A stretch of DNA of 64,000 bases, from NCBI GenBank assembly GCA_035084275.1, contig CM068756.1, positions 4,774,001 to 4,838,000 on the forward strand, read 5' to 3'. Below are positions 3,663-59,345 of this stretch, in pieces; position 1 is the first letter of the stretch; every line of letters starts with the position of its first letter. The notes beneath the pieces are model-generated. The model worked only from the letters and a program-made list of their open reading frames with translations, searched no databases and had not been told where the DNA came from. The position numbers were made by a program, and so were the translations under genes. This DNA is from Hydrolagus colliei (taxonomy: Eukaryota).

Positions 3663-4122
3663 TCCCAAATTACTGGTTTGGTTTGTATGGCTCAGTCTCA
3701 CACTAACCTGCAGGCAGCATACAAGGGATGGAAAAGTCCCACAACGATAAGACATGGCAAAAAGGGAATAACATTAATCCATCAAGGAAACTTGGAAGTG
3801 TCTTCCCAGTTTACATCTTTGGCACTTTGAGAATTAGTGGAGCATCGATAAGTAAAGGCACATATTCTAATCAGATCGGTCTCTTTGGTGGAAATGTTGA
3901 ATCAGGTCACCAACTATATATCAATGGGTCTTTGTGCATGTGACTCAAGCAACTGAGAAAATGCTTCCAGATTTCCTTGATGGTATAATGTTATTCACTT
4001 TTTTGTACGTCTTATCTTCACAGGACTTTTCAAGCCCTTGCACACTACCCCACCACCAATTGTTTATTCAATGAATCTCTTGGCCATGAGAAATTGAGCC
4101 ATGTGCAAACCAGGAATATGGT
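3663..4122. mobile_element. Palindromic MITE-like element with long inverted arms
   Basis: 3713-3811 aligns without gaps to the reverse complement of 3951-4049 (about 75/99 identical); outer arms 3663-3700 and 4087-4122 also match; no coding capacity. Confidence 0.75.
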
Positions 4123-17110: not shown

Positions 17111-17400
17111 ATAATAATAATATTATTGCATTTGATATAGTGCTTTTCATGTCCTCTAGATGTCTCGAAGCGCTTCACAGAATATACTGTAAAGTGAATT
17201 GACTGTGTATTTGTGGGTGAAACGCAGCAGCCAATTGTCCCGCAAACAGTCGTGGATTGAAATGACCAATTTTTTTTTGAGGGATTATTATCAGGCGTGT
17301 GGAGTAAGGAAACTTGCCCAAGGTTTCGCCCTGCCTGGAATTGAACCCAGGTCTCTCGCTTGTAACGCAAGTGCTCTAACCACTGAGCTATAGGACTCCA
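17111..17400 (-). mobile_element. Full-length tRNA-headed SINE (best copy in window)
   Basis: Head TGGAGTCCTATAGCTCAGTGGTTAGAGCACTTGCGTTACAAGCGAGAGACCTGGGTTCAATTCCAGGCAGGGC with Pol III A box (TAGCTCAGTGG) and B box (GGTTCAATTCC); Deu-3'-like body; stem-loop and (ATT)n tail. Confidence 0.92.
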
Positions 17401-17995: not shown

Positions 17996-18284
17996 TAATT
18001 ATAATAATCCTTGCATTTGATATAGCGCTTTTCAAGTCTTCTAGACTTCTCGAAGTGCTTCACGGAATATACTGCAAAGGGAATTGACTGTACATATGTG
18101 GCCAATTGCACATAGCAGTGTCCCACAAACAGTCATGGGTTGAAATGACCAATTTACGATAGGTTATTTCTTTGAGGGATTATAATCAGGTGTGTGGAGT
18201 AAGAAAACTTCCCAAAGTTTCGCCCTGCCTGGAATTGTACCGAGGCCTCTCACTTTTATGGCGAGTGTTCTAACCACTGAACTA
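17996..18284 (-). mobile_element. Near full-length tRNA-headed SINE
   Basis: Colinear with 17111-17400 but lacking the first few head bases. Confidence 0.9.
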
Positions 18285-22870: not shown

Positions 22871-25003
22871 ATGAGCACAGAATATAGCAGAGTCACTGCT
22901 ATTTAAGTTTAGAAATTAAAGAAACAATGTGCAGGTGCTTCTATTCAGGTTCAAAAGAATACTGTATGACACAGGATGCGCTTCAGAATCCTTTTATCTG
23001 CAGAGCAACAATTGTGCCTGTGTCTGAGAGTATTAATAATAACGAACCATCTGGTTTCCTTACTTTAAAACCAAGACTAAATAGTTGAATATATATGTGT
23101 GATTTATGCTTCTCTTATGGAATTGCATATGGCAAACAGATGGGGGCATTATACACCAAACCAACTAAAAAATGAAGTGTGTTTTTCTTATGTCACAACT
23201 GTGTATTTTCCAACTTTTGCTCACAGTTACAGAATTTGAAGTGAAAAAAGGCCATCTTCAAACAGATTACAAATGTGATGAGAGATAAATATATATTTTA
23301 AAATCCCCTGCGTACATTAATTATGGTTTCTCTTCCTTTTACTCCCCTAAGATTACCATAATTCTGGATAAATGTAATATTTAGAACCTAAGAATCGTTT
23401 GGGGCAGAACAAAAAACTTACATCCGAAGTCACCCCTGATTAGATTATCAGCCTCACTCTCCTGACTTCTCGTTGTACTTCTGAAGCCCTTTATCTCTTC
23501 AGAGAAGCACACACTTCCTCCTTCTTGAACTCATTTATTGGTCTTCCATGCCTTCCATGAGTCCATTAATTTCCTCACACGGAAGACAGTAAATGGACTT
23601 TTCCCAAACAGGAATACCTCACTCCCTGTAGTACAATAGCTAATCCAATTATTCCCAAAACGTTTGCAGGTTGTTTGAAACTTTGCTGAAGTCAACCTCC
23701 TGTTGCGGTGTGTTGGAAGTTTGCCTTTAAAATCAATTTTCTAGAAAAGATATTCAAATGGCATTCATATCACTGCAAGTGATGCTCACAGGGTATGATG
23801 AGGACCAGAATGTCAGATGCACAAAGGAGACCATAACTGGTGTAATAGACGAGCGAATTGGCAACAAATTGCAGAAGTCACTGTGCACCATTCAAATCAG
23901 TTCAAAAGCATCAGTGGATCACTCAAACCCACCTCTGAACACTATGTTTATTCACAGCTAATAATTTCTAAACATTATCAGTAAGATAGGGAAAATGCAT
24001 ATCCCAGTCCCCAAAACATTAAACGTTTCTTGTGACCATTCTCCTGCATCTTTGTCTATGACTCAGATGCAGTCAATTTTTTCAACTAATTTGAGCGTCC
24101 AAAGGCCTGAAGATCGCTGGTTATATAGATGGTATCAAAATAAACTAAGTGATCAAAAGTAAAGTGCAAAATCAATTCAGATTTGTCATGATATTAAAAA
24201 TGCAGGATTCAGAAAGGTAGTGTTTTCTTGTGCACCTTGTTGGAAAATGTATCTAGATCTTCTGTGTCAGAACATTTAATCCAGATGTCTATTTGGTTCT
24301 ACAAGCAAAAGGTTGCAGAATACTCATGCAGCAAAAAAACAAGGTATAATTTCCCGTCACTGGGAAAACCCCTCGATCTCAGTGAATATTTTCTAGAGAA
24401 CTATTTGACTCCAAAGAGTTACAAAGGGTTAAGGTTCTTTCCAACTGTGATTGCTCTTGGCATCATTCTCTCAGAATGCAGGATCGGTTCGGAAACTGAA
24501 ATAGAACCAGATCAGCTAATTAAAAAAGTGCTTGCCAGTTCTTGCTGAAATGGTTGGAATTTTAACCCTCACCGTTGCTGTCGGTGACTTCCTGACATTC
24601 CAGCCATTCTTGTGTGTGTGCAGCACTGTGCAAAGCCACCAGGAGGCATTTGTTATCTACTTCATAGAGAGCCAAACAGGGGCATTCTTCACCGTTCACG
24701 TTGCTCTTCCCCTATAGGGAGTACAGCACAGTCAATGAACTAAATTAAACCACGAATGTTGGGATGGGAATTTATTCTTGTGATCCTTCTACAATCTGAC
24801 TTGCTGACTGTACACATCCCACCACAGGGAGGCGAAGAGAAGAGGCAGGTATTGCATTTCAGCCAAAGAGAGTTATTCCAGACTGATTGGTCTTAAGAGT
24901 ATCATTAATACAAGCAAGTAGTCTCTCGGCTCCCTTGGCTATGATGTTTGGTGCAGCTAAACATGGAATCAGGTCTCTGTACTGTAGATATACTAACATT
25001 GTT

Positions 25004-25221
25004 ACAGAAACAGAAATCGTTGAGAACACTCAGCAGGTCAGGCACCATATATGGAAAAAGCAAAAGTTAGTCAATGTTTCGGGTCCACGACCCTTCGCCA
25101 GTTCTGGCAAAGGGTCATGGACCTGAAACGTTGACTCACTTTCTTTTCTCCATAGAGGCTAATGAGTGTTCCCAGCTAGTTCTGTTTTTTGTTTCAGACT
25201 TCCTGCATCTGCAGTATTTTT
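25004..25221. mobile_element. Palindromic Penelope-like element end (inverted pLTR-like fragments) with two degenerate minimal hammerhead motifs
   Basis: Arms centred on a 2-nt spacer (25102-25103) are reverse complements; each arm matches the 3' end of the PLE at 44794-44895. Confidence 0.85.
25100..25136 (+). ncRNA. Degenerate minimal type I hammerhead ribozyme motif
   Basis: AGTT-CTGGCAA-A-GGGTC atg GACCT-GAAA-CGTT-GACT: stem I AGUU/GACU, stem II GGGUC/GACCU, palindromic AACGUU stem III, NUH = GUU; core CUGANGA is mutated to CUGGCAA. Confidence 0.55.
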
Positions 25222-25464
25222 GTGTTTGGTTTATCTTAACATTGTTTTTGGTCCAGCTAATAAAAGATGCCACAATAAATGTCTTAATTTTCCTCACCTC
25301 CTATTCTTTCCTGGGCTACTGAAGGCAGCATTTTGCAAATGCTTCTTTACGTCAGCTTGGCTCAGTTGGTAGCAATTTTTGATGGGTTTCTCTCCTATAT
25401 CATGTCCTAGTTGGATTCAAGCTCAAAGTTCATGCAAACAATGGTCCAATACTGGATGATGTAT

Positions 25465-34538: not shown

Positions 34539-34827
34539 AATAATAATCATTGCATTTGATGTAGCACTTTTCATGTCTTCCAGACAGAATATACTATAAA
34601 ATGAATTGATTGTATACTTGTGGGCGAAATGCGACAGCCAAATGCGTACAGCGGTGTCCCACAAACAGTCGTGGATTGAAATGGCCAATTTATTGTTGTT
34701 TTTTTCGAGGGATTATTATCAGGCCTGTGGAGTAAGGAAACTTGCCCAAGGTTTTGCCCTGCCTGAATCGAACCCAGGTCTCTCGCTTGCAAGGCGGGTG
34801 CTCTAACCACTGAGCTGCAGGACTCCA
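34539..34827 (-). mobile_element. Full-length tRNA-headed SINE
   Basis: Head TGGAGTCCTGCAGCTCAGTGGTTAGAGCACCCGCCTTGCAAGCGAGAGACCTGGGTTCGATTCAGG; colinear with the 17111 copy. Confidence 0.92.
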
Positions 34828-41211: not shown

Positions 41212-41342
41212 TGGAGTCCTATAGCTCAGTGCTCAGAGCACTCGCCCTACAAGCAAGAAACCCGGGTTCAATTCCCCGCAGGTCCGGGCGAAACCTTGGG
41301 CAAGTTTCCTCACTCCACACGTATGGTAATAATCCCTCAATA
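41212..41342 (+). mobile_element. tRNA-headed SINE, head and 5' body only (3' truncated)
   Basis: tggagtcctatagctcagtgctcagagcactcgccctacaagcaagaaacccgggttcaattcc...gaaaccttgggcaagtttcc. Confidence 0.9.
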
Positions 41343-44793: not shown

Positions 44794-46309
44794 ATCTGAA
44801 ACAAAAACAGAAGTAGCCGAGAACACTCGGGCAGCATCTATAGAGAAAGGAAAAGTGAGACAATGTTTCAGGTCCACGACCCTTTGTCAGAACTGGAGCA
44901 TGTTGGAAGAGAGAGGCTTTTAAGGATTAACAGAAAGTGGGAAGGCAAGGCAAGGAAGACAAAGGAAGTGAAATACCTGTGCTGGCATGGGAGGGTGCCG
45001 AGGGAAGGGAAGCGACTGTTAGTGTTGATGGAGGAGTGAACCAGTGAGTCACTGAGGGAACAGTCCCTTTGGAATGCGGGGAGGGGAGGGAAACATATGC
45101 TTTGTGGTGGGGTCAGGCTGGAGATGATGGAAATGGCAGAGAATTATCCTTTGGATATTGATGCTGGTTGGGTGGAAGGTGAGGACTAGGGATCCTATCA
45201 AAGTTCGGGAAGAGGGGGAAGAGGTGAGGGCAATGTAGCGGACACAGTCCAGAGCACCATCTACCACAGCAGATGGGAACCCTCGGTCGAGGAAAAAAGA
45301 AGACATTTGAGATGCTCTGACGTGAAAGTTGGCATCGTCAGAGCAGATGCGACGGAGGCACTGGGAAAAGGGAACGGCATCTTTACAAGAGGCAGGGTAG
45401 AAGACGGTGTAGTCCAAATAGCTATGGAAGTTGGTTGGCTTGTAAAATACATCTGTTATAATCCATGACTCGAGATGCAAATGGTGAAGTCGAGGAAGGG
45501 AAGGGAAGAGTCGGAGATGGTCTATGTGAATTTTATGGAGGGGTGGAAGGTGGAAGCGAAATTGATGAATTGTTCCAACTGACTGCGAGAGTGCGAGGCA
45601 GCCCCAACACAGTCATCAATGTACCTGAGGAACAGGTCAGGGAGCGAACCTGAAGAGGCCTGGAACAAAGAGGCTTGGACAACAAACAGGCAGGCATAAC
45701 TGGGATGCATGCAGGTTCCCATAGCGACACCTTTTATTTGGAGAAAATGGTTGGAGTTGAAGGTGAAGTTGTTCAATGTCAGAACAAGTTCAGTCAGGCG
45801 GAGGATGGTGGTGGATGGAGCCTGGCTGTGCTGCTGTTCTAGGTGGAACCGGAGAGCCTGCAGGCTGTCCTTGTCGGGGATGGAGGTGCGCAGAAACTGA
45901 ATGTCCATTAGGAATACGAGGCGTTAGGACCAGGGAACAGGAAGTTGTTGATGTGGCGGAGAGCGTCGGAAGAGTCACGGATATAGGTTGGTAGGGTTTG
46001 GACAAGAGGAGCAAGAATGGAGACCAGGTATGAGGAGATCAATTCTGTGGGGCAGGAACAGACTGAGACAATAGGTCTCCCAAGACATTCCTATTTGTTG
46101 ATCTTGGGGAGGAGGTACAGGCAGGCAGTGCGGGGCTGGGAGACTATGAGGCTGGAGGATTGGGAGGAAGCTCGCCAGAGGAGTTGAGGTTATTGACTTT
46201 TCTGGTGAAGATAGCTTGGTGTTGTGATGTGGGGTCATGGTCCTGGGGAAGGTAGGAGGAGGTGTCGGAGAGTTCAGCCTCTGCCAGGTAGAGGTCCTTA
46301 CGCCAAACG
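44794..46309 (-). mobile_element. Decayed Penelope-like retroelement (RT and thumb; 5' truncated; GIY-YIG absent)
   Basis: Frameshifted translation: VWRKDLYLAEAE..LSDTSSY, PKINK*..GRPIVS..CPTELISSYL..LVQTLPTYIRDS, LVLTLNNFTF...GVAMGT...PSYACLF, FLRYIDD, FYKPTNFHSYLDY, LRRICS, AFQRDCSLSDSLVHS, GTLPCQHR, all PLE RT hallmarks. Confidence 0.93.
44857..44894 (-). ncRNA. Degenerate minimal hammerhead ribozyme motif in the PLE 3' terminal region
   Basis: Minus strand AGTT-CTGACAA-A-GGGTC gtg GACCT-GAAA-CATT-GTCT; differs from CUGACGA...GAAACGUU by CpG-type changes; PLE termini are known to carry such motifs. Confidence 0.55.
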
Positions 46310-46333
46310 TCCTGGCGTTTGGCGTAAGGACCT
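46292..46333. repeat. Perfect 18-bp fold-back hairpin at the PLE 5' truncation point
   Basis: aggtccttacgccaaacg-tcctgg-cgtttggcgtaaggacct. Confidence 0.95.
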
Positions 46334-46335
46334 TT

Positions 46336-46408
46336 AGAATATATTCTGTAAAGTGCTTTGAGATGTCTGATAAAACACTATATCAAATGCAAGGATGATT
46401 ATTATTAT
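46336..46408 (+). mobile_element. SINE 3' tail fragment
   Basis: atatattctgtaaagtgctttgagatgtc...atcaaatgcaaggatgattattattatt. Confidence 0.8.
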
Positions 46409-59078: not shown

Positions 59079-59345
59079 AATAATAATAATAATGCTTGCA
59101 TTTGATACATCTTCTAGAGGTCTCAAAGCTGTAAAGTGAATTGACTGTATATTTCTAGGTGAAACACGGCAGCTAGTTGCGCACAGCAGTGTCCCACAAA
59201 CAGTCGTGGTTTTTTTTTCTTGAAGGATTATTTTCAGGCGTGTGGAGTAAGAAAATTTGCCCATGATTTCACCCTGGCCCGGGAATTGAACCTAGATCAC
59301 TCACTTGAGAGGCGAATGCTCTAACCGCTGAGCTACAGGACTCCA
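59079..59345 (-). mobile_element. Full-length tRNA-headed SINE with small internal deletions
   Basis: Head TGGAGTCCTGTAGCTCAGCGGTTAGAGCATTCGCCTCTCAAGTGAGTGATCTAGGTTCAATTCCCGG; (ATT)n tail. Confidence 0.9.

Follow-up and report, generated by a model that had tools for sequence, protein, structure and literature searches.

The 64,000-nt window analysed here, the whole stretch of Hydrolagus colliei DNA under study, contains at positions 25004–25232 one insertion, flanked by a target-site duplication (TSD), in which two short 3' ends from a Neptune-like Penelope element are joined head to head. The two arms are probably two cDNAs, each primed from one of the cut target strands by the RT-endonuclease of the element. 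The palindrome was likely built at insertion and probably did not spread as a palindromic unit. The locus as such is an old, decayed and ordinary insertion of a known retroelement kind, and its ribozyme motifs are dead. Element positions are numbered from the first base of helix I of the hammerhead motif (+1 = 25100). The features of the window which bear on this reading are as follows.

24994–25003, plus strand: left target-site duplication, exact over 10 nt
25004–25097, minus strand: short tail-less arm, element positions ~+9 to +102
25098–25107, no strand assigned: head-to-head junction, apex CCAG-TT-CTGG, in which CCAG is native element sequence at -1 to +2
25098–25232, plus strand: long arm, spanning -1 to about +137 of the element, with 117 of 133 positions as in the family profile
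25100–25136, plus strand: decayed minimal type I hammerhead, its sequence read against the min-HHR description given in PMC4209133; it fails the descriptor
25197–25232, plus strand: Penelope-like element (PLE) tail of ~35 nt, present in the long arm only and unpaired in the fold; family 3' ends cluster near +105 and +137
25237–25246, plus strand: right target-site duplication, exact over 10 nt
44794–46280, minus strand: decayed copy from the same PLE family, truncated at its 5' end and bearing an ORF; it ends near +108, is tail-less and has a mutated hammerhead

The first-pass annotation of this DNA described a fold-back with a 2-nt apex, and this was confirmed: about 95 bp are paired around the TT at 25102–25103, and the letters quoted there are present on both strands. 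The fold of 25004–25221 has a free energy of -99.4 kcal/mol (z -11.8), a value equalled by 0 of 200 shuffles. The insert had been taken to end at 25221, whereas its actual extent is 25004–25232, the last ~35 nt being the unpaired tail. The exact 10-nt TSD (24994–25003 = 25237–25246) can be extended to 12 matches in 14 positions (24990–25003 versus 25233–25246), and in a control of 5000 random pairs, 10 had a match of at least 10 nt. The palindrome itself is without an ORF, and a Pfam scan of 54 of the 87 window frames of at least 85 aa gave zero matches at cut-off.

Both arms correspond, as had been proposed, to the 3' end of the RT-coding element at about 44794–46280 on the minus strand (blastn identities of 84% and 75%; alignment identities of 87/101 and 71/86). 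This copy is a relative and not necessarily the source of the insert. The short arm (81/93 identical to the family profile) begins within the CUGANGA core of the hammerhead and has kept helix II and GAAA intact, while the palindrome of helix III is broken by a G>A change at 25075. In the long arm helix I is formed by 25100–25103 with 25133–25136, the core occupies 25104–25110 and bears two substitutions (25107 and 25109), a bulged A lies at 25111, helix II at 25112–25124 and GAAA at 25125–25128, and the predicted cut falls after 25132. Of the two back-to-back hammerheads claimed initially, therefore, the one on the plus arm is full but mutated, and the one on the minus arm is truncated, lacking the 5' strand of helix I. 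The view that the present copies have broken motifs stands, the min-HHR descriptor giving 0 matches on either strand of the window. Any transcript of the window would carry one sense motif only, predicted to be locked in the ~95-bp hairpin.

A CTGG core change, thought to be shared by the two arms, had been read as a sign that one arm was copied from the other. It is most simply not shared: the native CCAG of the element at 25098–25101 reads CTGG on the other strand. Since this CCAG starts the plus arm, the first base of the minus arm proper is 25097, which falls within the CUGANGA core, and no mutation is needed to explain its CTGG. An alternative reading of the junction combines a 3-nt CAG microhomology with an A>G change. 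The A>G change at 25107 is private to the plus arm of the window, the 12 other loci with the same apex reading CTGA.

Rfam returned no hammerhead match in the window (E<=1) or at the locus (E<=10), and it also missed two intact motifs at locus L298. The Rfam miRNA matches in the window are generic hairpin matches below the gathering score and were rejected. Locus L298 (1380–1640; G000:C1:6139821-6139901), the best natural specimen for an assay, is a young palindrome of nearly perfect symmetry in which both hammerhead cores are intact; it has a spacer of 11 nt and a single tail, and folds at -200.7 kcal/mol.

The identification of the family motif as a minimal type I hammerhead held good. It has an intact core, a helix I of 4–5 bp, a bulge before helix II and a palindromic helix III, and is located ~290 nt after the ORF stop and ~135 nt before the 3' end of the element. 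In the 1.4-Mb sample described below, 10 distinct family arms pass the min-HHR descriptor, 4 of them with the AACGTT palindrome, as against 1 match outside the family; a 35-nt pattern with an intact core has 800 exact matches genome-wide and its reversed control 0. Variants between subfamilies preserve the pairing of the hammerhead, U-G being replaced by C-G in helix I and C-G by U-G in helix II.

In long copies of the family a DKG motif is accompanied by motifs of RT and GIY-YIG type and by a linker of the form CxxxxCxxC. The frames of locus L320 show DKG, YxDD-type and YIGET...H motifs, and a zinc-finger-like linker, CQRRRCNTC, stands between RT and EN in L068, L319 and L322. Pfam matches to the family frames are below cut-off (GIY-YIG, E 5.8e-4; RVT_1, E 0.027). 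Among 17 homologues of the encoded protein the best are from rays, skates and sharks. The family thus has the attributes of an EN+ Penelope-like element, namely a DKG RT with a C-terminal GIY-YIG and a pLTR hammerhead near the 3' end, and the window locus has the layout of a PLE insertion (an inverted, 5'-truncated copy, a 30–40-bp tail at one end, and a TSD). A Cx2-5CxxC linker between RT and EN is described in PMC8557442 as defining Neptune and as shared with Nematis; by that definition the element may be placed as Neptune-like. Four 6-kb stretches around young endonuclease matches contained no full-length copy with a 5' pLTR, all copies there being 5'-truncated. Two PLE copies, L319 (G000:C6:80916494) and L068 (G000:C6:81395471), are 99% identical over the endonuclease and lie ~480 kb apart in opposite orientation; L319 is apparently intronic and adjoins an Ig-domain exon.

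How common such palindromes are was estimated from a systematic sample of 140 evenly spaced 10-kb stretches (1,399,400 called bases of the 1.0-Gb genome). It contained 47 loci, made up of 17 head-to-head pairs and 30 singles, which extrapolates to genome totals of ~34,000 loci and ~12,000 palindromic pairs (~12 per Mb). This abundance would favour the idea of the first-pass annotation, namely that the palindrome forms a discrete non-autonomous element centred on the ribozyme, whose own transcript the PLE RT inserts anew. The window apex does recur: there are 8 exact pattern matches to it, with 9 to a T-variant and 1107 to a single-arm pattern of equal length, and 5 of the 26 loci found with an apex-spanning query fall into one of 17 junction classes. 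Non-autonomous PLE derivatives also exist (PMC8557442, section 10; bioRxiv 10.64898/2026.07.22.740005). Variable apex positions among the copies had been named beforehand as an outcome that would refute this proposal, and the apices do vary. All junctions are distinct when compared within each set not picked by apex, 17/17 in the systematic sample and 13/13 and 27/27 in two sets obtained with single-arm queries, some automatic junction calls (e.g. L014, L018, L169, L246, L264) being mis-mapped. These 57 pairs (17 + 13 + 27) are the basis of the apex and nesting counts; the first 30 loci, which came from the apex-spanning query and are biased, were left out of them.

The window apex accounts for about 1–2% of arms. 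Of 13 loci which carry it, belonging to several subfamilies, 7 have their tail on the CCAG arm and 4 on the truncated arm, and 2 are unclear (polarity was read by eye in L017, L283 and L285). Copying of one master palindrome cannot flip polarity and so cannot produce an apex with the tail on either arm; the window apex therefore recurs by microhomology. Rare variants are common to both arms in 4 instances, against 2.4 expected and a maximum of 8, and occur in one arm only in 288; in view of this lack of excess, gene conversion between the arms was rejected. Apex and polarity are thus not fixed among copies, nor are private variants shared. Moreover, long copies that retain the native upstream sequence exist in each subfamily inspected by eye, and a fold-back transcript would bury both the hammerhead motif and the RT start region. 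The variable apex largely refutes a discrete palindromic element, which we regard as extremely unlikely.

We prefer a mechanism of twin priming. One cDNA would have started at the tail site and the other at the pre-tail site, both would have stopped near the 5' edge of the hammerhead, and the two would then have been joined head to head via CCAG/TCAG microhomology. The palindrome would be the short limit of an ordinary inverted-pLTR insertion, and the hammerhead, now broken in both arms, would have been carried along as part of the pLTR. The protein of an anole PLE has been described as cutting and extending both target strands, as a predicted dimer, and as having two start sites which bound the tail (PMC11167929). 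In the family studied here the 3' ends are bimodal, near +105 and +137, single copies included. Exactly one tail is present in 16 of the 17 sampled pairs, the 17th being cut by the sample edge, and in 79/84 of all pairs, of which 40 came from tail-containing queries that fix one tail but not the absence of a second; three cases called as having both tails were remapped to short-arm ends at +102 to +105. Long copies repeat this layout: L066 and L080, in which both arms are long, each have a single tail.

The main rival to twin priming is self-priming (snap-back), in which the mirror arm would be made by a single cDNA, or an antisense template, bending back at the small CCAG/TCAG hairpin and serving as its own template, with later apex deletions scrambling the junctions. 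It has been proposed for head-to-head PLE palindromes (PMC3846280), and the window locus, being nested, is compatible with it when taken alone. Nesting in the 57 pairs argues otherwise: in 28 the start of the short arm lies 5 nt or more upstream of that of the tail arm, so that neither contains the other; 16 pairs are nested, and in 13 the two starts are within 4 nt of each other. The same 28 pairs speak against the copying of one arm from the other, for which the evidence cited was the misread junction. Later apex deletions could, however, make nested arms look non-nested. Nor can self-priming produce an arm with a tail when the primary copy has none, as would be required at L320, where an inverted tailed arm (+11 to +137) is joined to a 2.3-kb RT-EN arm without tail, and at L300, where a tail-only inverted piece (+98 to +137) is joined to a tail-less arm (-9 to +99). 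It does not account for the flipped polarity in L282, L283, L285 and L288, and leaves the short-arm stop near +100 to +110 unexplained, a position at which single copies end too.

What counts against twin priming, and is predicted by self-copying, is that the arms of a locus nearly always share their subfamily variants. Position 55 is concordant in 65 of 76 cases against 35.8 expected by permutation, and position 78 in 59 of 73 against 34.1. Under twin priming both templates must then share a source. Clean pairs combining two subfamilies were not encountered; the arms of L176 are discordant, but a spacer of 35 nt separates them and they could represent two insertions. At 34 of the 57 junctions there are inserted letters in place of microhomology. 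A relaxed TSD (at least 9 nt, one mismatch) is present in 33 of the 57 pairs, a raw count without chance control. On balance we consider self-priming unlikely, and twin priming, for which the in vitro tests concern another clade, the probable origin of the window palindrome.

Local fold-backs of another type do occur. At the 5' truncation point of the long window copy, 46289–46336, there is a ~20-bp fold-back of RT-coding sequence, the source of a spurious Rfam match to mir-8186. This second type of 5' inversion resembles snap-back and in that respect favours self-priming. Loci L292 and L308 (1400–1500) have short inverted copies of -22 to +7 or -22 to +34 upstream of arms starting at -22 and -31; these too are local and distinct from the tail-arm pairs.

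The 5' ends of the arms pile up at the edge of the hammerhead, 33 of 64 falling at -10 to +9. The stop rate there is 0.46–0.48 per 10 nt, while no other bin between -80 and +79 exceeds 0.17; bins upstream of -80 hold at most 8 arms each and are limited by the length of the profile. Hammerhead cleavage as the origin of these ends was rejected, as only 1/64 lies at +31 to +37, near the predicted cut (+34). Among arms which do not continue upstream, 43 of 49 have kept 0–3 native letters before +3. No recurrent spliced first exon was seen at the junction by eye. A start site, a splice acceptor, or an RT stop at the paired hammerhead could each explain the pile-up.

If it marks a start site, a single hammerhead-plus-tail unit of ~105–137 nt might be a SINE-like RNA which begins at helix I, the palindromes being two such RNAs copied into one site. 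The concentration of 5' ends, the raised stop rate and the few native letters retained would all fit, as might CCAGTTC at that spot, which resembles an initiator consensus. No short-only subfamily was seen, however, nor was a full-length element with a 5' pLTR recovered, and in a set in which ORF-bearing loci are enriched, 26 of 75 arms continue past +1 into the upstream sequence native to the element. The same spot is, furthermore, a CAG after a pyrimidine tract, and the edge of helix I in Drosophila virilis Penelope is described as an intron end (PMC4209133), not as the start site, which lies 46 nt before that intron (PMC2377424). We therefore hold the SINE-like unit to be highly unlikely. 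Element positions ~-45 to +2 (e.g. L051 1435–1482) present a pyrimidine tract, CTAAC and a CAG before helix I which resemble a 3' splice site; these letters stand where the D. virilis intron ends, and they also fit an initiator.

The twin-priming reading may be taken one step further. A dimeric RT-endonuclease might prime two RNAs from both target strands with the hammerhead acting as a dimer signal, through its self-complementary helix III and an inter-copy helix I, so as to hold the templates and set the cDNA stop. We put this forward as a speculation that is rather unlikely to be correct. If true, the PLE hammerhead would serve to pair RNAs and not to cut them, and the thousands of stump palindromes would record how inverted ends are made.

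Elsewhere in the window, tRNA-like Rfam matches at 17326–17397, 18228–18284, 34755–34823, 41215–41286 and 59279–59335 fall within a dispersed repeat family, as would be expected of SINE heads derived from tRNA; in the fetched loci, many PLE stumps lie inside or next to these repeats. A 99-nt inverted repeat (3713–3811 / 3951–4049; 76%, 139-nt spacer) is outside the PLE family.

The value of the locus is as one of an extrapolated ~12,000 natural records of how PLE inverted ends are built and of what the weak hammerheads of PLEs do. Three features can serve to tell twin priming from the published self-priming, namely the rule of one tail per pair, the lack of nesting between arms and the stop at the 5' edge of the hammerhead, and the active PLE system of the anole makes the choice between them testable. 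A literature search at listing level, of limited coverage, returned no paper stating twin priming for PLEs or reporting PLE palindromes from sharks.

The layout itself is already published, as regards an inverted pLTR with a one-sided tail, palindromes at the junction, and pairs of hammerheads on opposite strands. An inverted, 5'-truncated copy with a one-sided 30–40-bp tail is described as typical of PLEs (PMC8557442), and palindromes at the inverted junction, with TSDs, are reported for Pen2a_Av (PMC3846280). The window resembles the complex insertions of EN+ PLEs in its head-to-head inverted end, the tail on one arm, a TSD of ~10–14 bp and the junction palindrome; it differs in that both arms are cut to ~100–135 nt and no ORF lies between them. 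Unlike the EN+ PLE insertions so described, the family studied here has its 5' ends piled at the 5' edge of the hammerhead.

Non-LTR retrozymes, which are ORF-less, carry a type I HHR, derive from PLE pLTRs and are reported from a chondrichthyan (bioRxiv 10.64898/2026.07.22.740005), are built of units arranged head to tail in tandem, every one of them with an intact HHR. The window, in contrast, is one head-to-head pair with dead motifs, and was for this reason not classed as a retrozyme.

For metazoan PLEs, PMC4209133 describes pairs of min-HHRs on opposite strands ~100–700 bp apart, most motifs being truncated singles. The family motif shares with metazoan PLE min-HHRs the 4-bp helix I, an extra base before helix II, a G-C closing pair, the palindromic helix III and the location in the pLTR, while helix II is 5 bp long here as against 7–8 bp in Schistosoma. 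In comparison with the published pairs the two motifs of the window abut and both are broken.

The closest parallel to the proposed mechanism is Poseidon PAc of Anolis. In the experiments described in PMC11167929 both target strands were extended and HHR cleavage was not needed for insertion. PAc belongs to a different clade and its ORF starts in the HHR, whereas no long ORF start was seen in the present family; its two 3' initiation sites, which bound the tail, match the +105 and +137 ends found here.
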